Shown here: positions 5,154 through 64,000 of the stretch, in pieces
How positions within the stretch are numbered: position 1 is the stretch's first letter
How the letters are laid out: every line of letters starts with the position of its first letter
Source: Eledone cirrhosa
Lineage: Eukaryota
Length of the DNA stretch: 64,000 bases
NCBI GenBank assembly: GCA_964016885.1
Contig: OZ024746.1
Location: 36,270,001 to 36,334,000, forward strand
Direction: 5' to 3'
Position numbers and translations under genes: made by a program
Notes under the pieces: model-generated
Told to the model about the DNA's origin: nothing
The model's database searches: none
The model's input: only the letters and a program-made list of their open reading frames with translations

Positions 5154-5246
<93 letters not shown>

Positions 5247-5466
5247 GGATTAATATCTAGTAACATATATATACAGCAAACCACTTTCCACTGATTGACC
5301 TCGATGTCACTTGATTGATTCTTTTTGAATTCACCACAGACGCAGAGGCAGTGATTTTCTCAATGGCTAGGAATTCAGTCCACGCTTTGCTATTTCCTAT
5401 CCACTGAATTATTTTTTAATATGTTTCTAGAGTCCTCGCTTTGCCTGGAAACTTAGCTGAGAATAG

Positions 5467-5548
5467 GCTTCCCTGACGACGGAATGTTTCTACATATCTT
5501 CTTCGGAAAATATATTTACTCCATTTCAGAAACTAATTAGTTGGAAGT
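5467..5548 (+). ncRNA. Type I hammerhead ribozyme (repeat unit 1)
   Basis: GCTTCC-CTGACGA-C-GGAATG..CATTTC-A-GAAA-CTAATTAG-TT-GGAAGT. Confidence 0.8.
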
Positions 5549-5988
5549 GATATTTTAGTAAGTAAGTTAATTTTATAATTTTCTTATTTTACGTCTCTCA
5601 TATTATTGTTCTGCAACCCCATGCATTGAACCACTATGTTACTAAGACAAAACCTATATATTTGCTAGCATTGATATGCATCTGTATGTATATATATGTT
5701 ACGAGATATTAATTCTTTATAATTATCTCCAAATTATGTGTCGAGCAATATTGGCCATGGCTGCTGCTATGGTAGTAGGCAGGCCGCTGTCTTATTAGCA
5801 AACCACTTTCCACTGATTGACCTCGATGTCACGTGATTGATTCTTTTTGAATTCGCCACAGACGCAGAGGCAGTGATTTTCTCAATGGATAGGATTTCAG
5901 TCCACGCTTTGCTATTTCCTATCAACTGAATTATTTTTTAATAAGTTTCCAGAGTCCTCGCTTTGACTGGAAACTTAGCTGAGAATAG

Positions 5989-6070
5989 ACTTCCCTGACG
6001 ACGGAATGTTTCTATATATCTTCTTCGGAAAATATATTTACTCCATTCCAGAAACTAATTAGTTGGAAGT
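5989..6070 (+). ncRNA. Type I hammerhead ribozyme (repeat unit 2)
   Basis: ACTTCC-CTGACGA-C-GGAATG..CATTCC-A-GAAA-CTAATTAG-TT-GGAAGT. Perfect 6-bp stems I and II. Confidence 0.85.
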
Positions 6071-6141
6071 GATGTTTTAGTAAGTAAGTTCATTTTATAA
6101 TTATCTTATTTTACGTCTCTCATATATATATATATATATAC

Positions 6142-6713: not shown

Positions 6714-9777
<3,064 letters not shown>

Positions 9778-24711: not shown

Positions 24712-25610
24712 TTAAGGTGTAAGCAAAAAATCGGTGCTTTCACCATTAACGTCGAGGTAATTAACGACCGAGAGGTTGGCCTCAACCTGTATAGAGAGGG
24801 CTGTGAGTTCTTTTCTGAACCTGTCGCAAGCACGAGGGCCGCATTTAGTCATGGTCAAAAGACCATCATCACGGTACAAACCACCGCCCGCGTTGGGGAG
24901 TTCGTCCTTGATAGAGAAAAGAAGGAAAAGTTCGATAAGATCAGTAACCTCCGCAGAATCGCTGGCGGCCATACTCACGTCGAATGGGGTACTATTGGAT
25001 GTTTTAATCCAAATAGAGTCGTCGAAATTAATCACCGAATTAAGGGCATTGAGGATGACATCAACTTCAAAATCCTTAACCACTGTGAGTGTTTTAGTGA
25101 AATGGATAGCTCTAAGGAGAAGTGGTAAAGTGATGGAGGAGTAGTAATTATTGATGTCGAATTGGATAAAAAAGCAATGTTCCTTGTTGGATATGCCGTT
25201 GAACCAAACAATCACCGCGAAAGAATTGTTCCATAGTGCAAGAGGGGCCACACCTCTAATTTCAGGTATAATTCTATCAAGAATCATTTTACTAAGTCTA
25301 CCTAAATCGGACTTCGTAGGGTTAATAAGCCGAATAGAGGGTTTTTTCGGAAAATTGGATTTGTGATCCTTCAGGATAAAGTGGGGAGAAATAGTGTCCA
25401 GAAGTTCGGTCCGGTCCAGGATGTTGAGATCAGAGGTGATTTTAAACCAAGCATCGTTGATTTGATTGATGACGCACCGATTAGTTTTACGGTAATCCTT
25501 AGTTACAGCATTATGTAGTAGTTGATGGTAAGTACTGCGCTCCACTTGATATAGGTTGCCAGTTTTGTCAGAATGGACGTGCACGGCTTTAGAATCCTTA
25601 ATAAAACGAA
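24712..25610 (-). pseudogene. PLE reverse transcriptase fragment (YRDD type)
   Basis: SDKTGNLY, RLINPTKSDLGRLSK, QFDINNYYSSI, FDVSM..SDSAEV, GLYRDDGL, VVNYLDV. Confidence 0.88.
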
Positions 25611-25619
25611 ACGCTCCTA

Positions 25620-25947
<328 letters not shown>

Positions 25948-30186: not shown

Positions 30187-30221
30187 GTTTAAAATAGAGT
30201 GGAAAAGATGGGAAAGACCAC

Positions 30222-32318
30222 TTACCGTACTTTTGGTAGAGGAGGGATGGTTTTTACATCCCTTTTCACTTGATCGTCTGGTGAAGGGACCGTTGAATCG
30301 TCCCTTCGGCTGGTCGTCGGCTCTTCTAAGAGAATGTCTGAGTATACTCTTCGATTGATGGTTCCTCCTAGGTCCCTGAAATCACCAACTGCGTTGGGGA
30401 ATTTCGTTTTAATGTTTGTGTATTGTTTCTGTGCTATTTTTAGCAGTCTTATGTTAGTTGGCGTTTTGATTGGTGCTGGTATTATGTAGTCCTGTTGTGA
30501 AATGTCTGTGTGTTCAATTATGTAAGTCATTAGTTTCTTGTTGTGTGTATTTATTGCCGTGCATTTGTTTTTCTGGGGGTGGGGTGTGGTTCTGCTATTT
30601 TCTTGTCGTTGTTGCTGGGTGTGTGTGTTTTGTTGTTGTGTTTGCGACGTTGGTGCTTGTGGTGGTGGTGTTGAAGGTGTTGTTGGCGGTGGGGTTGTCG
30701 CCGGTGGTGATGGTGGTGCTAGTGTGGGTGGTGATGGTGTTGGTGTTGTTGCTGCTGTGGGTCTCTTTGCAGTAGACTTTACCCTATTCTCATTTCTTTC
30801 CTCCCTTTTCAAAGGCGACGATGCGCTGCTTCTGCGTTTGTGCCTTCTTGCGACCTTTTGCCATCCCTCTCCCACCTCACACTCCATGTCTGATTCTGTG
30901 AGGTCGGGGAGGGGTACCAGCTCCACTCATTCACTTGTTGTTGTTGGTGATGTTTGCACTGGAGTCTCTGTTGCAGCTGCATTTGGTATTGCTGTTGTTG
31001 TTGTTAATATTTCCACTGCTGCTGCTGTTTTTGATTTCCGCGGCGTGGGTATGGGTGCCACGGACCTATCGTTCCTGGTTGCCGCTTGTCCTGTTGCTGG
31101 TAGCCGTGGAGCCGGATTCGGAAGGAGGGGGGTTTTCTCCTTTCTCAGGGTCTTCTCGTTGCAGAAGGCCCTGAGGTGAGTCTTCGATCCACAGCGAAAG
31201 CATTTCGGGCGTTTGCCCTCAACACTTATGGGCAGTTGAGTGCCGTTATCGAAGTCTATCACATCCGGGATAGCTTCGATGCACTCCTGGTTGGTTTGGA
31301 TTAGCTTCTCAATGGAGGAGCCGACCCAATCTTCTCTTACTTTTTTCTGTACTTGCAGTACAGTTGTTTTGTCCTCGATTCCGACGAGGACAGACGCGGC
31401 CAGCCAAGAAGGGGTCATTCCGGGGGGGACGTGGGTCAGTTTGACCCTCACAATTTTTTGCCCGCAGTAGGAGGGCACCAACACCATTTCCTCGCTCCTT
31501 AGGGTCACTACTGATTGGGCCTTTGCCTCCTGGGGTGAGGCAAAAAGTACGTCTACGGTGGCATATTTTTTGCCTCGGGTGATGTGCGTTTTCCGCTGCC
31601 ACACAGACCCCAAGGCTTTTTGTATTTGGGCCTCTGTGGCTCTTTCCACCCTACGGGATTTTGTACTTACTGTACGGTACGTGACCGTACAGTGCTCTTG
31701 GGTCTCGAAAAACTTTTCCGCTGCCTTGCAGATTGCTCGGTGTCCGTTCTTTGTCACCATCTTCTTCGCTTCCTCTAATTCCTCATTTGTTATGAGGATT
31801 GTTTCCAAGTTTTTCGCAATACCTGCAAATGAGATTAGTTTTTCTCTGCTGTTGTTGTTGTCGTCAGAGCTGCTGGTACTTTTGTTGTTGCTGCAGGTAC
31901 TACCACTACTGCCTCCGCCGCTGTTGCTGTGGTTGTTGTTGGTGTTGCTGCTGCTAATGCTGTTGTTGTTTATGTTGCTGGTGATGCTGTTGCGGCTGCT
32001 ACTGTTGTTTTCATTGTCACTGTTGCTGTTGTTATTACGGCTGCTACTGCTATTATTCCTGACGTCAGACGAATGAACTGGGTTTTCGTATTTCCCGCAC
32101 ACCTGTTTCGTCGCTGTCGTCGTCGTCGTGGAGAAACCTTGCACGCTTTGCACGAGACTTTTCTTTTCTTTCGTCACTTGCGAAAGAGAAGGGAGGGAGA
32201 GAGACACATTTAAAGAAGGGAGGGAGAGAGACAATCTTCTCTCTGCTGTAGTGATGATTGAGGAAGAAGAAGACGGAATGAGTGGGAGTGACGTATGAAA
32301 TTTCTTTTTCGTAGCCAT
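30222..32318 (-). CDS. ORF1p (gag-like, zinc knuckle) with a single in-frame TGA at 30927-30929
   Basis: ATG at 32318 (MATKKKF). CFRCGSKTHLRAFC knuckle. ORFs 30927-32354 and 30222-30926 abut in the same frame. Confidence 0.8.
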
Positions 32319-32559
32319 GTTGTTTTTTTGTTTAAAATGAAATTTTGGGTACAAAACCCCAATAACTGGTTATTTAACCCCGAAGGGCCAAATAACGGAC
32401 AGAAAGACCCCTCTCACGAGGAGGAGGGTGTCTTTATCAACAATTTGGTTCAAGTTTTAAACAATTTACAATTGTTTTAACGGTTAAAAATGACTATACC
32501 TTACAGAGCCGAGCCTCCGTCAACCATGGCATTCAATAATAATAATAATAATAATAATA

Positions 32560-35130
32560 AAATACAAAACTAGGAGGAAAATGCTAAATATTATCATAGA
32601 GGAACTGAAGCAACGCATTGTAGCAAAGAGTGCAAAAATCAGGCGATACGAGAACAGAGTCAGTCAGTATAAACAGAACCGCATGTTCTACAACAACCAG
32701 AAGATGCTGTTTGGACAGCTTGAGGGGAAAGAAAGAGGCAACGACTTGATCCCTGGGGCGGAGCAAACTAAAACATTCTGGAGAGGAATATGGGAGCAGG
32801 ATGTTAGACATAATGTCCAGGCAGGGTGGATTGAGACAGTACAGAGGGAGATCGGTGAGCAGGCACAACAACAAACTGATTTGAGTATCACAGTTGAAAC
32901 TCTTAAGGGGCAGGCCAAAAAACTAACCAACTGGAAATCACCAGGCCCAGATGGTGTGCAGGGGTATTGGATGAAACATTTAACATCCCTCCACCCGAAG
33001 CTGACGGCCATGTTCAATGACTGCTTGGTGTCGGGTGAGGTGCCAGAGTGGTTGACAAAAGGTACCACAGTTCTGATAATGAAAGACCGAATCAAGGGTA
33101 ATGATGTTACCAACTATAGACCTATAACGTGTCTGTCCGTAATGTGGAAACTGTTGACGAGCATTGTGTCTGAGGAAATCTACCATCACCTTGTTACCGG
33201 ACGAACAGAAAGGATGCCGAAAGAAGTCACGTGGTACAAAGGACCAGTTGCTTATTGATAAGATGGTAATGGGGAATTGCAGGAGGAGACACACTGATCT
33301 TGCTATGGGATGGATAGACTACAGAAAGGCATTTGACATGGTGCCTCATTCCTGGATCACCAAAAGCCTGGAGGTCTTCAGGGTGGCAGATAACATCAGA
33401 CAGTTGCTGGGCAGGAGTATGGGGTCCTGGGAGACAGAGTTGACATCAACTGGAGTATCCTTGGGAAGCGTGAAGATCAAGAGAGGTATCTTCCAGGGAG
33501 ATAGCCTGTCCCCTCTGTTGTTTGTCCTTGCCCTGATGCCCTTGACCATTATGCTGCGAAAAGTGAGAGCAGGATACAAGTTGGGAAGGGGAGAGCTTAC
33601 CATCAATCACCTCCTCTTCATGGACGATCTTAAGCTCTTCGGGAAAAGTGAGAAGGAGTTGGATGTGCTTGATGACACTGTCCGTATTTTCAGCAGTGAT
33701 ATATGTATGCAGTTTGGTATTGGTAAATGTGGAGTCATTGTGATGAAGAGGGGTAGGTTGAGCAGAAGTAACGGGATCCAGATACCAACAGGTGAGATGA
33801 TAAAGGAAATTGACTCTGAGGAAGGATACAAGTATTTGGGCGTTCTGGAGGCTGATGGCATAAAGAACAAAAAAATGAAGGAATTGTTAAGAACTGAATA
33901 CATTCGGAGAGTAAGGAGCGTATTGAAGTCACATCTGAACAGCAGAAATGCCATAAGCGCAGTAAATTCCCGAGCTGTGTCTATTATTAGGTACAGTGCG
34001 GGAATTCTGAGATGGAATGTTGCTGAAAAAAAGAAATGGATAGGAAGTCTGGGAAGCTATTGACTATCTACAACATGTTCCACAAGAGGAGTGACGTCGA
34101 TAGACTCTACCTAAGGAGATGTGAGGGTGGAAGAGGTCTTATCAGAATAGAGGACTGTGTTCAGATGGAGAAAAACAACCTACACACATACGTGACTGAT
34201 AGTAAGGAGCCAATGCTCAGAACTGTACTGAAGGAGGGGACAATAGGCCAGGGGATGTCCAAGGAGGAAATAACATCAAGGAGAAAGAGCAGCCTTCAGG
34301 AAAAATCCCTTCATAGTACCTTCTTTGAGAAAACTGAATTTAGAGTTCCACAGACATGGAACTGGTTGAGAAGAGGAGACCTTAAAAAGGCTACAGAAGG
34401 AATGTTAATGACTGCGCAGGGGCAGGCCCTCAAAACGAAGTGGTTGAAACACCGTATTTACAAGGAGGAGGCTAGCCCACTGTGCAGGATCTGTGGAGAG
34501 AGAGAGGAGACTGTGGCTCACATTGTATACGAGTGTAAACACCTAGCCCAGACCCACTATAAGGGCTGGAGACATGATGTGATGGGCAGGGTGATCCACT
34601 GGCACCTGTGCAAAGAAAAACAATTCACCACATTCTGAGAAATGGTATGAGCATAAGCCAGAGGCGGTGATGGAGAACGATCATGTGAAGGTGCTGTGGC
34701 ATTTTAGGATACAGACGGACAAGAAACTGGAACACAATAGACCTGACCTGGTGGTTGTGGACAAAGAAAAAAGATCGTGCCTGATTGTGGATGTGGCCTG
34801 CCCGTTCGACACGAGAGTGCAAGAGAAGGAGAGGGAGAAAATTAACCGATACCAGGACCTAAAGTGGGAGGTGAAAAGGATTTGGAACTGCCATGAAGTC
34901 AAAGTGATCCCGATTGTCATAGGCACACTGGGGACTATCTCCAAAGGTTTCCAGGGATGGTTAAAGAAAATCGGCCCCTTCACGCTTTTTGGAACGCTTC
35001 AAAAGGCATGCTTGCTTGGAACAGCAAGAACCCTCCGATACGTCCTGAATATCTGAGGCTGCATGTAGTGGCTTGATATTCAATCCAACGGACTTTCCAG
35101 TTAACCAACATCAATGACTGAGATTCAAGG
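32560..35130 (+). mobile_element. 5'-truncated, frameshifted R4/Dong-like non-LTR element (RT, CCHC, RLE endonuclease)
   Basis: [45 protein letters not shown]; CRICGEREETVAHIVYEC; RHD; RPDLVVVD..DVACP..KINRYQDL. (AAT)n tail. Confidence 0.9.
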
Positions 35131-35446: not shown

Positions 35447-38400
35447 CTATAGGCGCATGGTCAGAGTAGGCCCATTCACACGAGCCATTCTCGCCACATT
35501 CACCCACCTTTTAGCAAATGTACGGGGGGAAGCACTTCTCTCTCCACCCTCACCCTCCTTTCCAGGTGAAACTTGAAGAAGTTGATGAGGGATTGGCCGA
35601 AGAGAAAAGTGTCTGTCTTTAGTCCTTTCAACCTGGTCCACCATATAATCTCTTTCGCAACTGCCACCAGACAGAGGAAAATGTCCTGCTCTTCCTGACC
35701 TAAGGAAGGTGGCGGCTCGATCGTCACTATGGACTCGGCCGATAACTGGATTCGTTCCACACGCGACAGTAGCTGTTCGACATAACTCCACAAGTCAGTA
35801 ATGCACGGACATTGGACAAGTGCGTGCAGAACGTCGTTCTGTGCGCATCTTGGGCAGGTCCGTCTGACAGCACTTCCGTGCCTGTAGAGTTTATCCCGAA
35901 CCGGCAGTGCCCCCAGTAGCATTGCCAAGCGAGGGATTTCTGGATATTGTCCATCGTCCCCGGCTCAATAGTCCTCCGGTACAGACTGGTCAGTTCGACT
36001 TCGTCGAGGCCCAAAGCTTCTCCGAGTGCGTCATCGCACTTGCCCACCACTAATCCTCTATAGAACTCGAGAGTGGAAGTTACACTGATCGCATTGCCCG
36101 CTTGGTAGAGGGCAGTGAGTGAAGGCAACATTCCAGGTGCCAGTCACCCAGTCTCGGTCTCTTCTTGAACCAGGACTGCAGCTCAGTCAAAGAAATGAGC
36201 TGCGGAAAGGCCCGTCTGATAAACGGCGACCACACCTGTTCACCATTGAGGCAGAATATCTGGAGATATCGCTGCTTCAACGCATGTCTGCGCATCATTA
36301 GCCACGGCATGTCCAGCCCTCCGCGTAGAGGGTGCTGGCAGCAGATGGACCGCCTCACCAACGGAACTTGTCCCCTCCACAAGAATTTGAAGAGGAGCCG
36401 TTCCAACTTGACGAGGCGCGGACGGGGGCAAGGCACGACGGTTAGGCGGTAATAGATGACGGACGCGATGTACGCATTCGCCACCTCCGCGCGACCTTTC
36501 AGTGATAGCTTCCACCCAGCCCACTTTTGGGTGAGACTGGCTACTCTGCTCGTTACCTCGTCCCAATTCTTTTCCACCTGGAGGTCTGGTCCGAACCAAA
36601 CCCCGAGCAACTTTACTGGTCCGTCCGTCCAGCGCCCCACGACGCTGTTGGACGGCATGGGCTTGCCTCTCCAGGTTCCGAGCTGCAAGCCCACCGACTT
36701 TTCCGGGTTTAGTTTGGCTCCTGTCAACCTTTCATATTCCTTCAATAAGGTGCCGACCACCTCGATTTCTGAGGTGTTCGACACCATCACGGTGATGTCG
36801 TCCGCATAAGCCGACACCGCATTTCCACGTCCCGGTTCGAGCGGGATGCCCTGCAACAGCTCCAGCTTCCGCAGTAAAGGCTCGAGAGTCAATACGTACA
36901 GAAGGGAAGAGAGAGGGCACCCTTGACGAACCGATCGGGAGAGCGGAAATGGTTCCGAGAGGTGGCCATTAACCTTGACCACCGAGCGTGTGCCGCTGTG
37001 CATTGCAACGATCCAGCTTCTAAAGACAGGGCCGAAGCCAGCTGCTTTGAGGACAAACTCCAGATACCGATGGTCGACCCTATCGAATGCTTTCGATTGA
37101 TCTAAATTGATCAGTGCCCCACCGAAGCCAGGTTTACAACCTACCCTCTCTATGATGTATCGCATGAGGTGGAGATTGTCGTGTATGGACCTGGCTGGGA
37201 TTGCGCAAGTTTGCGCCTCCCCAACCAAATCCTCGACGACAAGCGCCAATCTCTTTGCTACCACCTTGGCCAAAATCTTAAACTCTGTGTTGAGCAGAGT
37301 TATGGGCCTGAAGTTGTCTAATGTATCCCTCTTGTTCTCGTCTTTCCTTATCAGCGTCACCACTCCCCTGCTCACAGAACTGGGAATACTCCCATTATGC
37401 TGCCAGTTACAGTAGAGTGATTCGAGGAGTTCGGAGAACAAGTCTGGCATATTTACGTAAAGCTCGTAGGGCAGGCCATCCAAGCCGGGTGACTTGCGCC
37501 TCATACAGCCGACAAGGGCGTCCTGAATTTCGGCTGAAGTAATCGGCCTTTCGCAGCGCTCAGCGTCAACCGTCGAGATGCGCGGCAAGCCGTCAAGGTA
37601 GGGACTGAAATCCGCTACTCTCTCTGACTCGCCACTCTCCCTGAACAACCGAGCAAAGTGCTGGCGAAAGGCCTCACACATCCGCTTGGAATCGCTTATC
37701 TCGTGTCCGTCTCGGTCCGCCAAAGACCGAATTGTGGTTTTATTACCACGTTGCGCCTCCGCCACGCGGGCCCATCGAACAGCTTTAGTTCCCTCGTTTC
37801 TCAGCGCACGCGCCTTAGCTCTGACAATGCAACCTTCGTGTTTGGCATTGAAGAAATGGTCTAATGCCATTCTCGCCGCTAGCACGTCAGTTGCGATGCC
37901 ACTACAAATAGCCTCGTCTAACTTATCTACCAGCTCCCCCTCCTTTCTATTTTTCTCTAACGCTAGTTCTTTGCTGAACTCTATCGAAGTTACTCTAATC
38001 TCTCTTTTGAGAGCCCCCCACCATCTGTTGTTGATGATCCCCCCTGTCAACTTGTGCTTAACTAACTTATTGACTCGGTCCCTGTAAGCCTTACGTGCCG
38101 GAAATGACATGTTCAGCTTCCAGTAACCAGGTCCTAACCTACGCGTTTTATTTAGGTCGACCGTACAGATCACAAATTTGTGATCTGAATAGGCGACCGT
38201 TTTAAAAAGTGGACAGCCCACACTATTTCTATCTATTTTCCTAATGAAGATTCTGTCTATATACGATCTAGATGACCCCATTCGGTTGGTTCATGTCCAT
38301 ACTGGCACATTGGGGAAATCTAGTCGATACCTGTCAGACAGTTGGAACTGGCTGAGTAGGTGCTTGAGGCTTTTGCACCCCCCGCTCCTATCGGCTACTC

Positions 38401-38871
38401 CCACACAATCCCAGCGTGCGGGATTGTGTGGGAGATGCCATTCCAGTCCCCCGCTAACAGTAAAGGGCGAGACGTACCCAGAAAGGTCTCCAGGCGCCTA
38501 AAGAAGTCAGGTCGTCCGGCCCCTGTAGGTGCGTAGGCGGCCAGCAGTCTAAAGGCACCACCTTCGCTACTGCTTACATCCAAGACCACCAACTTACCGT
38601 CCGGGTCCCGGAAGATCGACCTTACCTCGAGATCCAGTCCTTTCCTAAACAGCACTACCACCCCACCCCACCCCCATTCCCGGCCTGCTAACAGATGCGA
38701 AGATCTGATAGTCGTCGAAAATGGGGGTTAGTGCACGCGTGTCGGAAATTCTGGTCTCGCTTACGGCAATCACATCCATTTCCAGCGACCGGAGGTCGTT
38801 GAGCAGGCGACCCTGCTTCCAGGGTGACCCCAGGCCGCGAAATTTAAACTTCCTACTCTTAATATGGCCAT
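35447..38871 (-). pseudogene. ORF2 (APE-RT-CCHC) with several frameshifts
   Basis: ORF pieces 38395-38661, 36080-38281, 35727-36131, 35500-35928 and 35447-35791 are collinear with the intact ORF2. Confidence 0.9.
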
Positions 38872-40858: not shown

Positions 40859-41108
40859 AATTTTCTTTTGGTGGGGAAGCGATTTTTTTTCGAAGATTTT
40901 AAAAATAAATCTGAATATTCGGGCTTAAAGCCCGAATATTGAGAGTTATCCCTCTCTTTAAATCAAGATGTGTACCTTAAGTTTCGTTAATGACAAGAAA
41001 ATACAAAAAAAAGACACTTTAAAACAGCTTAAAGCTACGAACCTTTTCCCCCGCAGACTTGTCTGTCTTCACACATGTGCGGCCATAATAATAATAATAA
41101 TAATAACA

Positions 41109-42246
41109 ATTGGATTATCTACATATCTAAGGGAATCACATGATTGGATGATCAAACTCGTTTTGAAACACGAAAGCATCAAAAGATCATATTCCATTAC
41201 AAAAGATGCACAAAGATACAGTAATGGACTACACATTTCAGAAGTCCCATTTACTGCTGAAATGGAAAACACACAAAAAGCAAAGCAGGTAAAAGTAACT
41301 GCAAAGAAAGAACTGCTACAGAAACTGGCTAAGAAATGGCAAGAAAAGCCTCTGTATGGAAAATACCCAGAGCGAGCTAACAATCCTGATGTTGACAAAA
41401 CTTTAACCCATCAGTGGTTGGCATCCTCTGGACTGAAATCGGAGACTGAAGGACTGATTATATCGGCACAAGATCAGTGTCTGCCAACAAAAAATTACCA
41501 AGCCAACATAATAAAAAATGGGTGCAGCCCATTATGCCGTATACGCAAAAAACAAACAGAGACCATTGATCATATAATTTCAATGTGCAGTCCTATAGCT
41601 CCAACCGAATACCTAAACAGGCATGACAGAGCTGCACAATACATACATTGGATAATGTGTAAGCATTTTGACCTGCCCCATCAAAAGAATTGGTGGGAGC
41701 ATCAACCACCTCCCATACTTGAAAAATATCACATCTCAATCTTGTGGAACTTTAGCATCCAAACAGACCGAAAAATAGATGCAAACAGACCTGATATAAT
41801 ATTGAAAGACTTCCAAAAGAGGGTATGCCTGCTAATTGATATGTCTGTTCCAATAGACAAGAATGTATCTATAAAAACATTTGAAAAATTGAGCAAGTAT
41901 AAGGACCTGGAGATAGAAATTGGAAAAATGTGGAAATTGAGAACTAAAACAATACCAGTGGTTGTAGGCGCTCTGGGAATGATACCTAAGGGGTCTAATG
42001 ATTACATATCGCAAATCCCAGGAAACCCGCGTATAGGAGAAATACAAAAGATAGTACTAATGGGAACTGCCCATATACTAAGGAAGATTCTGTCAATATA
42101 AGTACATCACAAGTCTAAACACTAAAGATGCATGTGTGAATATGTATGTTCTTTCTTGAACATGGCGGACCTTGATGTCTATTGAGGTCACTGGTTGTGA
42201 CTTGGTGATAACTCGTATGAACATAAAGCAAGATAAATGCAACTGT
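41109..42246 (+). mobile_element. 5'-truncated R4/Dong-like element (second subfamily): C-terminal zinc finger plus RLE
   Basis: LKSETEGLIISAQDQ, ETIDHIISMC, RHD, RPDIIL..LIDMSVP..KLSKYKDL, PVVVGALG. (AAT)n at both ends. Confidence 0.88.
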
Positions 42247-43113: not shown

Positions 43114-43486
43114 CCTAAGTCCATAGAATCATTTCCTCTCCCAATTAGCATAAAACCACACACACAATTACTTATATTATATTGCTCTGATTATTTAATT
43201 TATTACTTCTTCATTGAGCCACATCGTGAATGGTTGCTAAAACATATATATATATATATATGTGACTTTGTTTAGTTTGAATATGTAAATCTTTATATAT
43301 ATATATATGCCTCCTACGTGTGAATCAGTGAAAATGATACACTGTCTTCTAGTTTGATCAGAGCTCTATACTTGAAACATGAAATATACATTATCTCAGA
43401 ACATTGCGAGGTTTATGCTGGTGATGACTTTATGACTGCGCTTGTATTCCTATGTAAATATATCTTGGAGTAATAAAAAAGTGATG

Positions 43487-43881
43487 AATAACATGGTTGA
43501 AAGTACAAACAATGTTATTTATTTACAGTCTTACAATTGTTCCCATGATAGAATTGTCTATATATTGCTAAGTACTGGAGACAGTATAGCTCAATTTACA
43601 ATACATCTAAGTAAAATCATTTCATAGAGAAACTAATAGAAATATAAAATATATGCGTAACGGTAATCTTAAAAATTCAAATTCAATTTGAATTTTTAAG
43701 TATACCATTACGCATATATTTTATATTTCCTAATAGTTTCTGATGAAATGACTGAACTTAGATGTATTGTAAGTTGAGTTATACTCTGTCCAGTACTTAG
43801 CTATTCATAGACAATTCTATCATGGAAACAATTGTAAGACTGTAAATAAATATCCTTGTTTGTACTGTCAACCATTTTATT
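43487..43881. repeat. Diverged fold-back hairpin (~195-bp arms, 1-nt spacer at 43684)
   Basis: AAAAATTCAAATT-c-AATTTGAATTTTT centre. Arms are complementary with scattered mismatches. Confidence 0.85.
43735..43841 (+). ncRNA. Type I hammerhead with long loop II
   Basis: AGTTT-CTGATGA-A-ATGA...TCAT-G-GAAA-CAATTG-TA-AGACT. Confidence 0.7.
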
Positions 43882-43906
43882 CTTTACTCATATATATATA
43901 TATATA

Positions 43907-45707: not shown

Positions 45708-48333
45708 AGCTCGACTTCTTTCTCTCCTTCTTCTGCCCCTTCCACCCCTCCCTCCACTTCACCACCTCTATCTCCACCACCCACGTCCACTTCTTAGACA
45801 TCACCGTCACCTTCAACCCCTCCCATCACTCCCTCGTCACATCCGCCTTCTTCAAACCCACCGACTCCCACTCTTAGCTCGACTTCACCTCTTGCAACCC
45901 CACCCACACTAAACACTCCATTCCCTACTCTCAACTTTTCAGAATCCGCCGTCTCTGTAGCCGAGATGCTGACTTTGAGTCCCAGGTCCTTTCCCTAGTC
46001 AGCCATTTCATCCGCAGAGGTTACCCCCCCCCCCCCATATCTCATCCACACCGCTCTCACCCGCGCCCGTTCTGTCCCCCGCTCCACCACCCTCACCCCA
46101 CGCCACCGCGCACCCACCCACCATCTCCCATTCCCCATCACCTACCACCCCTCCACCTTACCCCTCCACCGCACCATCCGCCGCCTCTTGCGACGCCTCA
46201 AGTCCGACCCCTCCACCTCCCACATCTTCCCAACCCCACCACTCCCCTCCTTCAAACGCGCACGCAATCTCCGCACCCTCCTCGTCCACAGCTCCCTACC
46301 CCCCAACCCACGCTCCGTTACCCCCCCCCCGGTTCCTTTCCCTGTTCTAGGCCCCGCTGCAACACCTGTCCCCACATCACCAACACCACCACCTTCCAGG
46401 GTCTCAACGGCCACTCTCTCTCTGTCCGGCATGCCTTCCGCTGCACCTCCTCCAACCTACTTCTCTCGGACAGACGGGACGTCGCCTGGCGGACCAATTC
46501 ACTGAGCACCTCCAGGATATTCGTCTCGGGGGTAGTTTCCCCATCGCCCGCCACTTTGGTAGCCCTGGACATTCCGCACGCCATCTCACAGTCTGTGGCC
46601 TACTCCAGTGCCACGGAACACCCGCCAATCGCCTTAGGCTCGAACAACGAACTATCTTAATCTTACAGACCCACACTCCCGCCGGCCTGAACTCCCCACC
46701 CTTATTCATTTAGCCTTCGACCGCCTCCATCCCCCCACACTTATCCCCCACTAACACCACTAACACACCCCTACTTTTCACCGCCCACCCCACAACTAAC
46801 GATACTGAACACCTACACTCAACCCCTCATCTGACCACCCTTCCCCAACTAACATACTAACATCCCTCCCTCCTTCCTCCCCCCTCCTTATCACACGCAC
46901 ACACCCACCGGCACATATATACACGCGCTCACACTAAACACACACCCTACTACCACCACTAACCCTCATCCTCCACACCTCTCACCCCCACACCTCCATC
47001 CCTCCACCCCGCAACTAACCTCACTAACACCCCCTAACCCCAAGCACACGAACACACGCACCCACTTACACCCCCCACCCCACACGCAACTAACATCACT
47101 AACACCCCCCGACCCCACGCACACGTACCCACACACCCTCGTACACCACCAACTCTACACACCCTACCACCACTAACCCCCACTCACACCTGCATTCAAC
47201 CCCTCCCCACCTCCCGTATACTAACACCCACTAACACCCCTTCATCAAACTACACACGCACCAGTACACCACACTCCCTCCATAGAACCACACACAACCT
47301 TCTCTCCCCGCTCCACCCACACCCTCGCTCCACACTCACTCATCCCACCAACACCTCTACTAATACACACACACACCCTCCTCACTCCAACTTTCACACC
47401 TACTCATCCTCGCCCCTTTACCATTCCAACAAATGCTGCTATGCCCTCTGACCACCTCCCAGCACAAACAGACACACAGCACTCCCACTGCTTGACCACT
47501 TCCTGTTGCGCGCGCACCCCACATCTCTCCTCTTCCGACCATCGCTTCATGGAATACTCGCACGCAGAAATTGACCACCACAGAATCCACTAAACACCTT
47601 TGGATTTTACCAACTTTTCAACCATCCTCTTACTTAATCACCTATATAACTCACCCACACACACACACACCAAAAACATTTTTTCTCCACACGCCACCTA
47701 CACCCACAACACGCTTGAACCCCACATACACGTGCTTTCCACCACATATTTACACCCTCAGCCTCCTGATTCCTCTCCCTCCACCCCTCTATCCACACAC
47801 GCACATACACTACGACCCCCCCCCCGCCCCCACACACACACCTCTTCCTGAACATGCAACCCCGTTCTTCCCCCAACCCTAGCTTTCACATACACACACA
47901 CACACACACGTACACCTACACACACACACCACCTTCAGCCCTCTCCGCTCGGACACCCCGTCTCCCTCTCCCCACTCCACCCGCCACCACCCCTACACAC
48001 CCCACACCAATCCACCACCTGTGTTACTCCCCTTTTAATTTCAGTTTATTTTGATCATGCTTTTATATTTAAATTTATCTCATTCCTTGTATTTTGATCA
48101 TGCTTTATTTTTATTTTTATTTTTATTTTTTTCATTCGCACCGTTTCCTTTCGCTATATGTCTCTCCACCACTCCCCTACACACCCTTTGAACTCTGTTC
48201 CCACACACTTCTCACCTGAGGCAGGGCTTATGCCCGAAACGTCGTCCCCCATCAACACCCCACTCTCCAGAGCGTGAAATTAATAAGCATTCGTTGTACT
48301 GTCTCTCTGTTTTGTCCCTGTTGAAATTTGTCC

Positions 48334-48336: not shown

Positions 48337-48430
<94 letters not shown>

Positions 48431-49395
48431 TGAAATTTCCGTTGGAAACAGAAAAGGTCATGGAAATGAAGAGTGTTCTATGTAAGTATCAGAGCAAAAT
48501 TTAATGTATAAAAATCAATACAATATAATTACCTCATTACCAGAGGTTTCCCGAATGAGGCGAATACGAAATAAACGACTTCATTCGTTCGTCAGACGAG
48601 GCAATATAAAACATGGGTAAATACTTAGAAAAACTCATCAAGAAAATCAAAAAAAGATATAGATAAATGAAATAGAAATTGAAATATATAAAAATCTATC
48701 AAGAAATATAGTTAGGTGTGTGTACATGTATGTGTATACGCTCACAGATGTGCATATGTGTATATGCGCACATGTATATGTATAGTGAGAAAGTGTGCGT
48801 ATTTCTAAAATTTAGGGCAACTGTATCTATATGTCTGTAATATACAGACAGAAATGGTTACATCATAAATATATGAATATGAAGGCGCGCGCATAAAACG
48901 CCTGCACACTCGTACACTTAGATGCGGAAAGAAAGGAGTTAAGGGAGTGTAATAATTAAAAGAAAAGTATCAGTCTCGATATATTTATAAAAATATAATA
49001 ACGATAAATTAGAAAGAAAAATATATTTTTAGAAAGAAAAAATTAAAGAAAAGAAGATAAAAAAGGGGTACATACATACACAGACACGCATGTCTCACAA
49101 AAGAAATGTAAGAATAATTATGCTTATATACACACGCGCACTTACACATCCATACGTTCGATACGTCCATACACACACACACACACACATACTTATACTC
49201 ACGCATATAAACCTGTTTGCATCCCCACGCATGAAATTGAGTAAGTAAAAAAGGGGAAAGGGGGGGGGGAGAAGAAAAAAGGAACAAAACATAAAACCGA
49301 GATGTCAAAAACACGGATATAAAGACATGTACACATACGCATAATATATACATACACACACACACAATCACACGTACACACACATATATATACAC

Positions 49396-49456
<61 letters not shown>

Positions 49457-49859
49457 CATACACGCACGCGCGCGCACATACGTAGTCACTCATGTACATA
49501 TATAAAAAAGTATACACACATAGAGGCGTTCAGCCATATTGATACAGGGTGTAAAAACTTGTGGATAAATAAGTACAAATATAAAATTGTAAGATAGGCT
49601 GCGCAAAAATAAAATTAAAATAAGAATAAAAATGAAAATGAAAAATATATCTGGATGGAAAAACACAAAAGACATGTGTAATCAGTTAGTGGAGGAAAAA
49701 GGGAAGTAAAAGAAGGGGAAGTAAAAAATAGAAAGTGAATCGGAGAATAAGGGGGGGGGGATGTGAAGTAAAAATAAAAGTAAAAATAAATGAAATTATT
49801 GACAAGGATAAAAATGAAAGTAAGTCAGAAAGGGTAATTAAAAAGAGAATAATAAGAGT

Positions 49860-51182
49860 TTATGGAGGATAAGTATCTGAAAGTGTGTTAAGTTTATATG
49901 AGCTGGAAAGCAGATGTGATTTCATGTGTGGGCAACTGGTGAAAATTCCCGTCTTTGTGTTCAGGTAGGTCTTTGGTGATTTTAGATTTTGCAATATCCA
50001 AAATTTTTCATTTATGCAGAGCGTGCATTTTCTTGTTCCTCTAGCATATTTTTTAGATTGGTTCAAAATTGACCAATCTAGTTTATATTGGATGCCTTGG
50101 TCTTTCAAATCCCAAATTCTGCTAGCCAGTGCTGTTGTAAATCTTTTTTTCTGGATGTCGAAAGGATGCGACATGTGAGTAATAACGCGTTTTGAATCTG
50201 TCTTGCGTCATACCCACATATCGTTCACTGGTGGCTGGATGGTTGTTGCTGATGGCTGTCACATTAGCCGCATATACAATGGCTTTGGTGTTGCATTTAC
50301 CTTGTAATGGGCATTCACTTTTGATTCTACAGGAGCAAGTTTGATTTTCTCTAGGTGATATTTTGTTGAGGATATAGGACTTAATAGGGGGACCGCAAGA
50401 ATAGCTAATTTTAACACATTTTCTGTTAAAGATCTTATAGTATCTATGTGTTCTAGGGAAATGTTTATCTAAGATTTCTAGGAATTGTTTGCCTACATTA
50501 GTTTTAACTGCTAGAGAGTAGGGAGGTGTGAACCAGATTATTTTTCTTTTCCTATTTTTATCTTTAATAGAGTTAGTGTTGTTAGGTATGTATTTAATCG
50601 GTTCGCTAAAGCCGCTATTTTGGAGGGCTTTATTATAGTAGGGGGATGCCTTATTAAAAATAGCTTCTGAGGAAGAGAGGGTGGAGATCCTACGGCTAAT
50701 ATTAGGGATAAGGTTTTTAAAAACTATAGGTGGATGGCAAGATCCTTTATTTATATATTTTAAGTTTTCATTAGGTTTATGGTATGGTTTATAAGAAGCA
50801 GTAGGCACATCTAGGTTTATATCTAGGAAATCTACGTTGGAAAGGTTAGTGTCAATAGTAATTTTAAGATTAAAACTAGCGAAGGTTTTTATTAAGTCTT
50901 TCCTTAATCTATCTAAGTTATGTCCTATGGTGGTATGGGAAAGTATTAGACCATCATCTCGATAAAGCCCCAAAATATGGTTAGGAAATTTTTCTTTAAG
51001 TGTATGTAAGAGGAATAGACCGACCAGATCACAAACCTCGGCACTGTCATAAGAGCCCATAGAGACATCGAATGGGTTCTCTGGGTTAGATATTTTTACC
51101 CAAGTGTCATTATCATTAAAAAGTAGAGTGTTCCTAGCATGCAAGATGACATTCTCTTCAATATCGGAGATATTAGTGAACC
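49860..51182 (-). pseudogene. PLE RT (YRDD) plus GIY-YIG, left arm, frameshift near 50145
   Basis: FDVSMGSYDSAEV, GLYRDDGL, DFLDI, IIWFTPPYS, CSCRIKSECPLQGKC, IVYAA..YVGMT..FKTRYYSH. Confidence 0.9.
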
Positions 51183-51185
51183 TAT

Positions 51186-52622
51186 TGGTTTAATAATATT
51201 AAAAACAAAATCAGTTCTAGATTCACCCAATTTGACATTGTAGATTTCTACCCATCTATTACACAGACCCTTTTAGTGAAAGCTTTAAATTTCGCTAGAG
51301 GGTTCACTAATATCTCCGATATTGAAGAGAATGTCATCTTGCATGCTAGGAACACTCTACTTTTTAATGATAATGACACTTGGGTAAAAATATCTAACCC
51401 AGAGAACCCATTCGATGTCTCTATGGGCTCTTATGACAGTGCCGAGGTTTGTGATCTGGTCGGCCTATTCCTCTTACATACACTTAAAGAAAAATTTCCT
51501 AACTATATTTTTGGGCTTTATCGCGATGATGGTCTAATACTTTCCCATACCACCATAGGCCATAACTTAGATAGATTAAGGAAAGACTTAATAAAAACCT
51601 TCGCTAGTTTTAATCTTAAAATTACTATTGACACTAACCTTTCCAACGTAGATTTCCTAGATATAAACCTAGATTTGCCTACTGCTTCTTATAAACCATA
51701 CCATAAACCTAATGAAAACTTAAAATATATAAATAAAGGATCTTGCCATCCACCTATAGTTTTTAAAAACCTTATCCCTAATATTAGCCGTAGGATCTCC
51801 ACCCTCTCTTCCTCAGAAGCTATTTTTAATAAGGCATCCCCCTACTATAATAAAGCCCTCCAAAATAGCGGCTTTAGCGAACCGATTAAATACATACATA
51901 ACTACACTAACTCTATTAAACATAAAAATAGGAATAGAAAAATAATCTGGTTCACACACCCCTACTCTCTAGCAGTTAAAACTAATGTAGGCAAACAATT
52001 CCTAGAACTCCTAGATAAACATTTCCCTTGAACACATAGATACTATAAGATCTTTAACAGAAACTGTGTTAAAATTAGCTATTCCTGCGGTCCCCCTATT
52101 AAGTCCTATATCCTCAAAAAAATATCACCTAGAGAAAATCAAACTTGCTCCTGTAGAATCAAAAGTGAATGCCCATTACAAGGTAAATGCAACACCAAAG
52201 CCATTGTATATGCGGCTAATGTGACAACCATCAGCAACAACCATCCAGCCACCAGTGAACGATATGTGGGTATGACGCAAGACAGATTCAAAACGCGTTA
52301 TTACTCACATGTCGCATCCTTTCGACATCCAGAAAAAAAATTTACAACAGCTCTGGCTAGCAGAATTTGGGATTTGAAAGACCAAGGCATCCAATATAAA
52401 CTAGATTGGTCAATTTTGAACCAATCCAAAAAATATGCTAGAGGAACAAGAAAATTCACGCTCTGCATAAATGAAAAATTTTGGATATTGCAAAATCTAA
52501 AATCACCAAAGACCTGCCTGAACACAAAGACGGAAATTTTCACCAGTTGCCCACACATGAAATCACACCTGCTTTCCAGCTCATATAAACTTAACACACT
52601 TTCAGACACTTATCCTCCATAA
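51186..52622 (+). pseudogene. PLE RT plus GIY-YIG, right arm, nonsense at 52029
   Basis: Starts WFNNIKNKISSRFTQFDIVDFYPSI. TGA at 52029 corresponds to AGA in the left arm. Confidence 0.9.
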
Positions 52623-53013
52623 ACTCTTATTATTCTCTTTTTAATTACCCTTTCTGACTTACTTTCATTTTTATCCTTGTCAATAATTTCATTTATTTTT
52701 ACTTTTACTTCACCCCGCCCCCCTTTATTCTCCGATTCACTTTCTATTTTTTACTTCCCCTTCTTTTACTTCCCTTTTTCCTCCACTAACTGATTATACA
52801 TGTCTTTTGTGTTTTTCAATCCAGATATATTTTTCATTTTCATTTTTATTTTAATTTTAATTTTATTTTTGCGCAGCCTATCTTACAATTTTATATTTGT
52901 ACTTATTTATCCACAAGTTTTTACACCCTGTATCAATATGGCTGAATGGCTTAATGTGTGTATACTTTTTATATATGTACATGAGTGACTACGTATGTGC
53001 GCGCGCGTGCGTG

Positions 53014-53066
<53 letters not shown>

Positions 53067-53854
53067 ATATATATGTGTGTGTACGTGTGTTTGTGTGTGT
53101 ATGTATATATTATGCGTATGTGTACGTGTCTTTATATCCGTGTTTTTGACATCTCGGTTTTATGTTTTGTTCCTTTTTTCTTCTCCCCCCCCCCCCTCCT
53201 CCTTTCCCTCTTTTTGCTTACTCAGTTTCATGCGTGGGCATGCAAACAGGTTTATATGCGTGAGTATAAGTATGTGGGTGTGTGTGTGTGTATGGACGTA
53301 TCGAACGTATGGATGTGTAAGTGCGCGTGTGTATATAAGCATAATTATTCTTACATTTCTTTTGTGAGACATGCGTGTCTGTGTATGTATGTACCCCTTT
53401 TTTGCCTTCTTTTCCTTAATTTTTTCTTTCTGAAAATATTTTTTCTTTCTAATTTATCGTTATTATATTTTTATAAATATATCGAGACTGATACTTTTCT
53501 TTTAATTATTACACTCCCTTACCTCCTTTCTTTCCGCATCTAAGTGTACGAGTGTGCAGGCGTTTTATGCGCGCGCCTTCATATTCATATATTTATGATG
53601 TAACCATTTCTGTCTGTATATTACAGACATATAGATACATTGCCCCAAATTTTAGAAATACGCACACTTTTTCACTATACATATACATGTGCGCATATAC
53701 ATATATGCACATCTGTGAGCCTATACACATACATATACACACACCTAACTATATTTCTTGATAGATTTTTATATATTTCAATTTCTATTTCATTTATCTA
53801 TATCTTTTTTTGATTTTCTTGATGAGTTTTTCTAAGTATTTACCCATGTTTTAT

Positions 53855-53932
53855 ATTGCCTCGTCTGACGAACGAATGAAGTCGTTTATTTCGTATTCGC
53901 CTCATTCGGGAAACCTCTGGTAATGAGGTAAT
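53855..53932 (+). ncRNA. Canonical type I hammerhead; mirror copy at 48528-48605 on the minus strand
   Basis: ATTGCCTCGT-CTGACGA-A-CGAATGA..TCATTCG-G-GAAA-CC tct GG-TA-ATGAGGTAAT. 10-bp stem I, GUA site. Confidence 0.88.
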
Positions 53933-53954
53933 TATATTGTATTGATTTTTATAC

Positions 53955-54031
<77 letters not shown>

Positions 54032-58122: not shown

Positions 58123-58126
<4 letters not shown>

Positions 58127-59647
58127 AAAGACGTAAAATAGGAAAATAAAAAAAAAAATTAAAAAAATTAACTTACTAGAATGTTCACTCCAACTAATTA
58201 CTTTCTGCAATGGGATAAAGACAGTTACGTAATGAACTGTTGAGAATTTCATTGCGTCATCAGGGAGGTCTATCCTCAGCCAAGTCTGTAAGCAATGCGC
58301 TGAAACTGGGGACTCATATAAAAATAATAATAATTCGGTAAATGGAACAGCTATCGGGGACTCGATTCTAAGTACTGAAAATCTCGCTGCCACTGGTCAA
58401 ATGGCCGATTCTAAAGAATCAATCACGTGACACTGAGGCTAGTCGGTAGGAATGGGATGGTAAGATGACAGACGCCTACTAACACACCAAAAATTTAGTA
58501 GTTGTTTTGGCAGGTTTGCTCGACAAATCAGTGATTTGGAGATAAATATAGATCATTTAATATATCTACTAACATAAGCGCACAGATGTACGCTAATGCC
58601 AGCAAATACACAGGTTATGTCATAGTACCTAGGTGGTTCAATGCAGGAGGATGCAGAACAATAATATAAAAGACGTAAAATAAGAAAATTAAAAAAAAAT
58701 TTTTTTTAAATTAACTTACTAAAATTTTCACTCCAACTAATTAGTTTCTGCAATGGGATAAAGACAATTACGTAATGAACTTTTGAGAATTTCATTGCGT
58801 CATCAGGGAGGTCTATTCTCAGCCAAGTCTCCAGGCAATGCGCGGACAATGGGGACTCATATAAAAATAATAATAATTCGGTAAATGGAACAGCTATCGG
58901 GGACTGGATTCTAAGTACTGAAAATCTCGCTGCCACTGGTCAAATGGCCGATTCTAAAGAATCAATCACGTGACACTGAGGCTAGTCGGTAGGAGTGGGA
59001 TGGTAAGATGACAGACGCCTACTAACACACCAACAATTTAGTAGTGGTTTTGGCAGGTTTGCTCGACAAATCAGTGATTTGGAGATAAATATAGATAATT
59101 TAATATATCTACTAACATAAGCGCACAGATGTACGCTAATGCCAGCAAATACACAGGTTATGTCATAGTACCTAGGTGGTTCAATGCAGGAGGATGCAGA
59201 ACAATAATATAAAAGACGTAAAATAAGAAAATTTAAAAAAAATTTAAAAAAATTAACTTACTAAAATTTTCACTCCAACTAATTAGTTTCTGCAATGGGA
59301 TAAAGAGAGTTACGTAATGAACTGTTGAGAATTTCATTGCGTCATCAGGGAGGTTTATTCTCAGCCAAGTCTCCAGGCAAAGCGCGGACACTGATGACGC
59401 AATGAAATTCTCAACAGTTCATTACGTATCTGTCTTTATCCCATTGCAGAAACAAATTAGTTAGAGTGAAAATTTTAGTAAGTTAATTTAAAAAAAATGT
59501 TTTTTAAATTTTCTTATTTTACGTCTTTTATATTATTGTTCTGCATCCTCCTGCATTAAACCACCTAGGTAGTATGACATAACCTGTGTATTTGCTGGCA
59601 TTAGCGTACATCTGTGCGCTTATGTTAGTAGATATATTAAATTATCT
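58123..59647 (-). repeat. 542/543-bp tandem repeat (~2.3 units) plus inverted partial unit; retrozyme-like
   Basis: TATAAAAGACGTAAAATA at ~58123, 58665 and 59208. Inverted copy at 59391-59647. One HHR per unit. Confidence 0.9.
58731..58810 (-). ncRNA. Type I hammerhead; further copies at 58188-58267 and 59273-59352
   Basis: CTCC-CTGATGA-C-GCAATG..CATTGC-A-GAAA-CTAATTAG-TT-GGAG. Confidence 0.85.
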
Positions 59648-59648
59648 A

Positions 59649-59727
<79 letters not shown>

Positions 59728-60086: not shown

Positions 60087-61082
60087 CATATGTACACATA
60101 CGTTTGTGTGTGTATACACGTTCAAACAACCAAAGTGTGTTTCCTTCTAAATAGATCGTGTATGTCCGCTTCTATTATATAATAGTTATGCAACGCTTTA
60201 TTCGTCTCACTACTATAGATCCGTCTCACTGCCTTCAGCCGGATGCTCGTGTAGAAAGTGAGCATCATGCCCTCTCTCTAGAGCAACATAATGACACACA
60301 CGCTGCTTTCGTATATAACCCCTAAGTTAAAACAAACAAGAGAACCAACATCAAGAATTCGGATCACATATTGGTATCTGGGAAGGCCAAATTAAATAAA
60401 CGTTTCTTAATCAAGGGACGAGCTTTAGACACACAGGCAACCGATCGACTACAAAAGTAACAAGTCTCATATTGTCAGTCAAGGAGGCTGGCGTGAAATT
60501 TTCCATCAAATCCAATTTCCTCGAGACATCGATGCCATATGTTAATTTATCTAAAGCTTGTTGATTATGTATCAATGAAAGATCAAACATCTTACATGGG
60601 CTACACAAGGGCACATGCCTTAACGTGAGAGCCAGATTTCATTCTACCGCTGCCCCAAGGTGGGAACTATTTTGTCAAACATGTATTTGTGAGATGAAAG
60701 GTTGGAGATAGCTTTGACAATATTATACATGAAATTCACAAAAAAGTATTGTGGAGTGCCAGAATCTTGCTTTATTGTAGGGAAATCTATTGTTTGAATT
60801 TCTATATGACTTGGTTTGGTTATTGTTTAGGTTTAGGTTTTCATCTAGAATATGAGAGCAGTAAGGTTAGATTCTATAGTTATTTGTGAATCGAAATATC
60901 TGAGATGTTTTAATGATTTATTATGTCTGTACGTTTGCATTCCTAGCTATTTCCCGAGCCTTGTACATGAACAGCTCAATGCATACAGATGGATATAGAT
61001 CGCCTAAAGTGTTTAATAAGGCATAGGCGGATCCAATCGCCTATATATATATATATATATATATAAGTTTTAATATAGATGA

Positions 61083-61131
61083 GATTCTACAGGACTAGAA
61101 CTGTTTCATTCTTTAGAAATCATCAGGAATC
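61083..61131 (-). ncRNA. Compact type I hammerhead
   Basis: GATTC-CTGATGA-T-TTC taaa GAA-T-GAAA-CAG ttctagtc CTG-TA-GAATC. Confidence 0.85.
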
Positions 61132-63223: not shown

Positions 63224-63253
<30 letters not shown>

Positions 63254-63254
<1 letters not shown>

Positions 63255-64000
63255 AATGAAAGTTAGAGTTAATAACTCTTACTTAAACCCTGTAATCAGT
63301 AAGCTCAAAGTATAAATACCGAGCATTATAATAATAATATATATGTAGTAAGAAAGACAGTAAATCGTGTGTCTAATATTAATAGGGTTGAAAGACCACA
63401 TTTGTTTGAAATATTTAACCATGAAGCAGACAGAATTGTAAAATAAAATAAAATTATATTATACAAACCGCCTCAATAACAATTATATCTCTCGGACAGA
63501 TTAATCTGTTTCGCCCTGAGTGTGTTTGCAACAGATAATCCATGGGCATCATCAGCGAGAGAATCTGATTAAATGCGACAAACACCTAGTACCAACGTTC
63601 ACACAGAAAAAATTAATTCATCACCTCGTGTGCCGTAAGTCAAAAGTGGTATGAGTGTATTGGGTAGAAAGAACAGTCCAACTCACGCAAATTAATAAGC
63701 TCACCTCTTGAGGGAGCCGACATATAAATGAAAGTTAGAGTTATTAACTCTTACGGAAACCCTGTAATCAGTAAGCTCAAAGTATAAATACCGAGCATTA
63801 TAATAATAATATATATGTAGTAAGAAAGACAGTAAATCGTGTGTCTAATATTACTAGGGTTGAAAGACCACATTTGTTTGAAATATTTAACCATGAAGCA
63901 GACAGAATGATAAAATAAAATAAAATTATATTATACAAACCGCCTCAATAACAATTATATCTCTCGGAGAGATTAATCTGTTTCGCCCTGAGTGTGTTTG
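63254..64000 (-). repeat. 472-bp tandem repeat with HHR (retrozyme-like), runs off the window
   Basis: AAATGAAAGTTAGAGTT at 63254 and 63726. Confidence 0.88.
63488..63562 (-). ncRNA. Canonical type I hammerhead, GUC site
   Basis: TCTCTCG-CTGATGA-T-GCCC..GGGC-GAAA-CAGATTAATCTG-TC-CGAGAGA. 7-bp stem I, palindromic stem III. Confidence 0.92.

Follow-up and report, generated by a model that had tools for sequence, protein, structure and literature searches.

A non-coding hammerhead element of Eledone cirrhosa, probably copied from two internal sites by a Hydra-clade Penelope-like enzyme

A non-coding hammerhead element with several thousand copies in the genome of Eledone cirrhosa is probably, judging from its sequence, a non-autonomous passenger that is copied by the reverse transcriptase-endonuclease of a Hydra-clade Penelope-like element (PLE) and primed at two internal sites. 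Our analysis started from a 64,000-nucleotide stretch (C6:36270001-36334000, hereafter the window), and the family was searched over the 3.0-Gb genome. Because the mirror-image insertions of the unit end at two points (S1 and S2) beside hairpins that are shared with Hydra elements, the unit was likely written into DNA by a Hydra enzyme working from both sides of a break. A preliminary description of this locus had proposed a retrozyme-like element mobilized by PLEs. The first proposal is supported by tandem non-coding units that carry one hammerhead each, are dispersed and are without LTRs, while the second is supported and can be narrowed to the Hydra clade by the (TA)n targets, the rule governing S1 and S2, the hairpins and one chimera.

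Organization of the arrays

From cut site to cut site the unit measures 542 or 543 nucleotides on the minus strand (Table 1), the predicted cut sites of the main array lying after positions 59277, 58735 and 58192. The preliminary description called both lengths non-coding, and indeed the longest ATG-initiated ORFs of unit dimers reach 29 and 40 amino acids. A homologous array with a 522-bp unit on the plus strand was recovered as described, and both arrays run out into (TA)n at an equal unit position. The two share 70.8% identity across 544 columns and are end members of one non-coding family. What did not hold is a purely tandem organization: the repeated units are present, but the last 265 bp of the main array (59391-59655) form an inverted arm on the plus strand, and the 522-bp units are likewise accompanied by a 35-bp inverted arm that had been overlooked. 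Most of what the sequence tells about mechanism comes from two features that the preliminary description missed, the inverted arm and the pair of fixed end sites.

Within the unit, the cut site is followed by S1, a hairpin, S2, a second hairpin, a conserved block and the hammerhead. The block, which contains CACGTG and recurs at 5827-5846 in the 522-bp array, is nearly invariant across subfamilies that are otherwise 69-95% identical, and is a possible internal promoter element.

Table 1. Features of the hammerhead unit and of a Hydra-clade element in the window
Feature	Coordinates	Strand	Remarks
Main arm	58123..59401	-	5'-truncated unit (start = unit position 418), two full units and 70-nt tail to S1, (TA)n
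Inverted arm	59391..59655	+	Unit positions 471-542, then 1-192; stops at S2 in (TA)n
Unit of 542 nt	58735..59276	-	Cut site to cut site
Unit of 543 nt	58192..58734	-	Cut site to cut site
Near-invariant 20-nt block with CACGTG	58956..58975	-	Putative internal promoter element; again at 58413-58432
522-bp subfamily array	5275..6125	+	1.6 units and tail; S1 end in (TA)n
35-bp inverted arm of 522-bp array	5241..5275	-	S2 end in (TA)n
Type I hammerhead	59273..59352	-	Sequence-intact; C.A at 10.1-11.1; GUU
Type I hammerhead	58731..58810	-	Core intact; private changes weaken predicted stem II fold
Hammerhead	58188..58267	-	C15.2 to G in stem III
Bulged hairpin 1	59179..59202	-	Few bases behind S1; further copies 58636-58659 (-), 59538-59561 (+)
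Bulged hairpin 2	59061..59085	-	Few bases behind S2; further copy 58518-58542 (-)
Two-armed coding Hydra-clade element, family H1	48422..53960	.	Hammerheads at both ends; separate from unit, S1/S2 end rule shared

Also present in the window are two LINE copies that are related to each other and encode endonuclease, RT and zf-RVT domains (26767-30381, 36080-38727), remnants of a second non-LTR type (32494-35056, 40962-42101), and fragments of other PLEs with GIY-YIG domains (719-1666, 8056-8671 and 45878-46713; Pfam matches for the first two).

Family size and covariation

Exact-pattern counts gave 5,115 copies of a hammerhead half-motif, against 3 for its control, and 7,567 of a mid-unit 20-mer, against 0; the copies are dispersed on many contigs. 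Searching with the units returned 1,583 candidates in one case, 39 of them scored, and 2,010 in the other, 40 of them scored. Three contig sets compared with the array contain related DNA under two organism labels, a match that is uninformative about RNA. Eleven representative units are 69 to 95% identical and include intermediates that bridge both window arrays. No root is given for the unit tree, the midpoint root being unreliable.

Across 17 hammerhead rows, hand-picked from 29 clusters and related to one another in a way that inflates the score, the covariation score was higher than in every one of 500 shuffles and in every slid control, as the preliminary description would lead one to expect; the count of pairs with a double change failed to beat the shuffles (249/500). 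One stem II pair takes all Watson-Crick forms in the 17 rows (U-A 6, A-U 4, G-C 4, C-G 3), and a second is U-A in 12 and G-C in 3. These patterns support selection on the hammerhead. A covarying helix was also found in the region formerly taken as loop II. A third tandem family, with a 483-bp unit, aligned poorly to the unit and was excluded from the covariation analysis.

Insertion ends and hairpins

We mapped 114 insertions, with overlapping loci merged into one and three segmental duplicates excluded. The best hits of the 542-bp unit contributed 37 and those of the 522-bp unit 38, and a pattern list supplied the other 39, among which 12 had been selected for their stem II variants. The 182 outer 3' ends fall at S1 (85), at S2 (80) or elsewhere (17), where S1 lies 61-70 and S2 179-192 bases behind the cut site, and (TA)n adjoins 151 of the 165 fixed ends. 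Fixed 3' ends go together with variable 5' ends, partial tandems, 5' truncation, an inverted 5' arm and a tail at one end; the insertions terminate at internal unit positions in (TA)n, and there is no LTR organization.

Two head-to-head arms occur in 71 of the 114 insertions. When three compound insertions classed as one-ended and 12 with one end off-site are set aside, 56 have both ends at fixed sites, and 55 of them pair S1 with S2 (p about 2e-15 against free choice). The single S1/S1 case is a compound insertion, and S2/S2 was not seen. This end map largely refutes a DNA-level satellite or fold-back repeat in which the hammerhead would be a decaying relic. An 11-unit array with signs of local exchange would suit such a repeat, but the spread over many contigs, the fixed 3' and variable 5' ends and the compensatory changes speak against it, and we consider it very improbable.

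A few bases behind each site lies a bulged hairpin, whose four-pair stem is accompanied by a 3' bulge of two bases and by an inner stem. It is present behind S1 in 82 and behind S2 in 86 of 94 units, with 17 matches elsewhere in the 94, and shuffled units yield 0.05-0.06 matches each. The same hairpin occurs behind both end sites of the Hydra-clade family H2 and behind the first site of H1, the second H1 site being missed by a descriptor that was written after viewing these sequences and was applied to the units, H1 and H2; Neptune, Naiad and Poseidon elements also occur in this genome. In the published consensus of the coral element Hydra-2_Amil, a hairpin of this kind is visible by eye at the 3' end. 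On the whole, we consider Hydra-driven priming at two sites likely.

Hydra-clade elements as candidate helpers

Two coding Hydra families were examined in full. Copies of H1 have open frames of 719 amino acids with the CxCX5C, CxxC and CxH motifs that, in the linker and endonuclease, define the Hydra clade (PMC8557442), and the protein resembles, by eye, Hydra-1_Obim of Octopus bimaculoides. From hammerhead to hammerhead the H1 unit spans 3,685 bases. Its 3' ends lie at two sites, which follow the cut site by about 38 and 115 bases, and two-armed copies have one of each end in 8 of 8 cases. H2 encodes 713 amino acids and ends at about 29 and 117. On these features, H1 is a candidate for the kind of helper that the unit would use.

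In one chimera (L218 / L234, G000:C1 about 19117600-19119300), unit positions of about 2-425 are joined to the coding 3' part of H2. It starts at about the predicted cut site, has no (TA)n at the joint and is unique in the genome; template switching or a later deletion between neighbours would each suffice to produce it.

In addition, we found units inserted in the TA tail of H2 copies at eight loci (L003, L013, L016, L025, L143, L178, L220, L227) and beside an H1 end once (L123); the placement in H2 tails may reflect timing or preference. H2 itself (L198-L203; window 24715-25656 and about 4915-5100) has a hammerhead with a CUU site and a basal U.U in stem II, and its core reads CAGAAGA, not CUGAAGA, in L198-L201, L203, L016 and L218.

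Alternatively, the units might have been amplified together with one coding Penelope-like family, of which they would be only the terminal repeat or a remnant left by internal deletion. Their parts are indeed ordered as in a Hydra terminal region (cut site, two ends, hairpins), and Xenopus retrozymes match Penelope terminal repeats (10.64898/2026.07.22.740005). However, the head-to-tail unit joins leave no room for an ORF, and among about 280 intact-type hammerheads scanned only 6 rows (4 loci) had a Penelope-like protein match within 2.5 kb upstream, which at the loci checked (L016, L114) belongs to a separate neighbouring insertion. Moreover, blastn of the units against 30 H1 loci gave no nucleotide similarity, and neither blastn nor tblastn found a coding parent sharing unit sequence in the loci examined. 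We regard this account as unlikely; an ancient origin of the unit by deletion is compatible with its being a Hydra passenger.

A mobilizer from another TA-targeting clade (Neptune, Naiad or Penelope/Poseidon) is similarly improbable. The window does contain fragments with GIY-YIG domains of other types, and Naiads likewise favour (TA)n, but the hairpins, the two-site rule, the U at the cut site, the basal mismatch of stem II and the chimera are all in keeping with Hydra.

The hammerhead motif

The hammerheads of the unit have the canonical type I features, namely CUGANGA and GAAA cores, an NUH site and three stems, with cores at 59348, 58806 and 58263 in the main array (minus) and at 5473 and 5995 in the 522-bp array (plus). 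In each of these copies the basal pair of stem II is a C.A mismatch, a feature passed over in the preliminary description, and the site reads GUU. The 10.1-11.1 pair is C.A instead of the canonical G-C in 284 of 288 motif rows, a set in which overlapping loci are counted repeatedly and some loci were found by a pattern that fixes the C.

The preliminary description assigned a full type I hammerhead to each unit. This is true of the copy at 59348, but a C15.2-to-G change affects the copy at 58263, and the plus-strand arm is without the 5' strand of stem I because it begins at the hammerhead core. The compensatory difference in stem II (GCAATG/CATTGC versus GGAATG/CATTCC) was confirmed, as was the palindromic stem III of both arrays. 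In stem I, pairing is kept between the arrays, by a paired insertion and not by a substitution. Loop II, said to be unrelated, can be aligned through intermediate subfamilies and contains an inner helix with compensatory changes. Nor is the GUU site unusual, as 10 of 25 Hydra-clade families carry U at the cut position (File S2 of PMC8557442; our own count). The same material has a 10.1-11.1 mismatch, mostly U.U, in 15 of 25 and lists C.A for PLE-X1_cBra.

Among B-type units, 38 of 45 have stems I and II both predicted at over 0.5, and among A-type units 27 of 37 do. For the 58806 copy, stem II has a predicted probability of 0.08, against a median of 0.99 among the 45 B-type units. Stem III is predicted to be unstable alone and to form a self-dimer of 10 pairs (-9.0 kcal/mol), a pairing already described for dimer-dependent animal hammerheads (PMC4209133). 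With its C.A at 10.1-11.1, GUU site and short stem I, the ribozyme may be slow; in Xenopus, one of nine predicted retrozyme dimers was reported to cut in vitro (10.64898/2026.07.22.740005). Rfam gave no hammerhead match over 58123-59655 at E<=10, nor across the window at E<=1. The conserved C.A pair together with the long stem II makes this a natural ribozyme variant worth assaying.

Several other hammerhead repeats were noted. At window positions 63250-64000 (minus, continuing in L096) lies a different tandem family of 472 bp, with one Hydra-type hairpin and a hammerhead that has an extra U after the core, a 14-base palindromic stem III and a GUC site. A two-armed non-coding piece ending in (TA)n at 43400-43900 contains a candidate hammerhead (43740-43836) whose long stem II has a basal A.G. 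The 483-bp tandem family (L034-L036, L097, L180) has the canonical G-C pair, a GUA site, a palindromic stem III and a tail resembling that of the unit, and it abuts 522-bp copies tail to tail within one TA tract. Finally, a small family with a short stem II and a (TA)n end about 22 bases behind the cut site is found at window positions of about 61050-61130 (minus) and in L003, L005 and L129.

The template: circle or multimer

Because S1 and S2 both lie behind the cut site, copying must have passed through the ribozyme junction in every arm that exceeds the tail in length, and the template of such an arm was either an uncut multimer or a ligated circle. Units within one insertion appear from their variants to have a common template. 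At multiply covered positions, 33 private variants are common to at least two copies within an insertion, 15 of them across both arms, against 238 singletons. In the B group, 12 of 96 differences within an insertion are located at family polymorphisms, versus 426 of 1061 for the nearest other insertions; in the A group the corresponding values (2/26 within, 22/150 between) do not differ significantly. The 16 variants found in only some copies of an insertion form a mixed pattern, with 8 in the same arm, 4 in the same register of both arms and 4 others.

In the Hydra-passenger explanation, tandem copies would be transcribed, paired hammerheads would cut as dimers via the palindromic stem III, and the monomers would be ligated into circles. 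A Hydra protein would then bind both hairpins and cut both strands of a TA tract, and S1 would be the priming site for one strand and S2 for the other, through a TA-like match of 3-5 bases. Both cDNAs would extend back across the ribozyme junction, and the two truncated cDNAs would be joined at their 5' ends.

We rate a circular rather than an uncut linear template as an even chance. The same Hydra two-site insertion could use an uncut linear multimer transcribed from a few long master arrays, with the hammerhead trimming only read-through RNA and the circle unneeded, an account that is less probable as a whole but deserves serious weight. For an Anolis element, hammerhead mutants left in vitro insertion undiminished and uncut RNA was the main substrate (PMC11167929). 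Most arms are shorter than two units, the four variants at the same register in both arms suit a multimer, and L130 (G000:C5:11373386-11379653), with one 11-unit arm and 0.4% divergence between units, is a candidate master array or else a recent local expansion. On the other hand, the copies of one insertion resemble each other more closely than expected from family polymorphism (B group), circles are indeed formed by relatives in coral, mussel and axolotl, and long arrays are rare (20 of 185 arms reach two units and 3 reach three) although subfamilies are many.

As a reading of ribozyme activity, the 5' ends of the arms give a divided picture. A manual count places the 5' ends of 12 out of 55 shorter arms between -15 and +20 of the cut site, versus 7 in two flanking windows (p 0.007), an excess that the palindromic stem III could itself create by seeding inversion junctions; in the pattern-picked set, only 7 of 59 do so. 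No RNA-editing signature was detected in the unit copies (A>G 14 versus T>C 24; 12 versus 25).

Relation to known retrozymes and Penelope-like elements

By its sequence, the unit qualifies as a non-LTR retrozyme. Like the metazoan retrozymes (PMC7229834; 10.64898/2026.07.22.740005), it consists of tandem units that are non-coding and low in GC and carry a single type I hammerhead apiece, with a short palindromic stem III and thousands of dispersed copies. Its length, presented as a novelty in the preliminary description, falls within the 51-972 bp reported for vertebrate retrozyme consensus sequences, which in ray-finned fishes average 650 bp (10.64898/2026.07.22.740005). Penelope-like helpers for animal retrozymes were already proposed (PMC7229834), and retrozymes have been tied by sequence to Penelope terminal repeats in Xenopus only, as far as the consulted portion of that work goes (10.64898/2026.07.22.740005). 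In contrast, two-armed insertions, fixed double ends, (TA)n targeting and start-site hairpins are absent from the consulted portions of both accounts. The long stem II with C.A at its base is a further difference, and circles, which were demonstrated there, are putative here.

With the Hydra-clade PLEs (PMC8557442) the unit shares (TA)n targets, a hammerhead near the 3' end, an inverted 5'-truncated arm, an optional tail at one end and the same bulged hairpin, in addition to the cut-site and stem II features given above. Autonomous members have a single ORF with RT, a CxCX5C linker and, at the C terminus, GIY-YIG, none of which the unit contains; because its longest ATG ORF is 29-40 amino acids, it is not such a member. 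It is also shorter (about 540 nt versus 2-3.7 kb; PMC8557442), and its tail of 118-122 nt exceeds both the reported 30-40 bp (PMC8557442) and the roughly 77-88 nt of H1 and H2.

A mechanistic parallel is the Anolis Poseidon, in which two internal start sites downstream of the hammerhead, shown in vitro, define the genomic tail and both DNA strands are cut and extended (PMC11167929). Its start site, however, lies in an AC-rich stem loop without target homology, while the ends of our unit carry TA-like matches just 5' of the hairpins and its arms use opposite sites.

Our literature search returned no account that describes this family, cephalopod retrozymes, a hammerhead with C10.1/A11.1 or twin priming in PLEs, and an entry in Dfam or Repbase is possible; it likewise returned no retrozyme whose end sites and hairpins link it to the Hydra clade, and no strict opposite-site rule.

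The origin of the inverted arms and one-sided tails of PLEs is named as an open question in PMC8557442. As a tentative suggestion, which we think doubtful, the two hairpins may constitute an RNA address: a dimer of the Hydra-clade protein would load on both hairpins of one circular RNA and prime the cut strands of a TA tract at different sites, and the 540-nt circle would be a minimal parasite that keeps the address, the promoter block and a dimer-dependent ribozyme. If true, such an address would account for both the one-sided tail and the inverted arm of Penelope-like elements. The family supplies a short protein-free template whose two mapped start sites each adjoin a candidate RNA signal and obey a strict opposite-site rule, and the same genome contains helper candidates with open frames; the question of the helper and that of the arm and tail are therefore testable in one in vitro assay.
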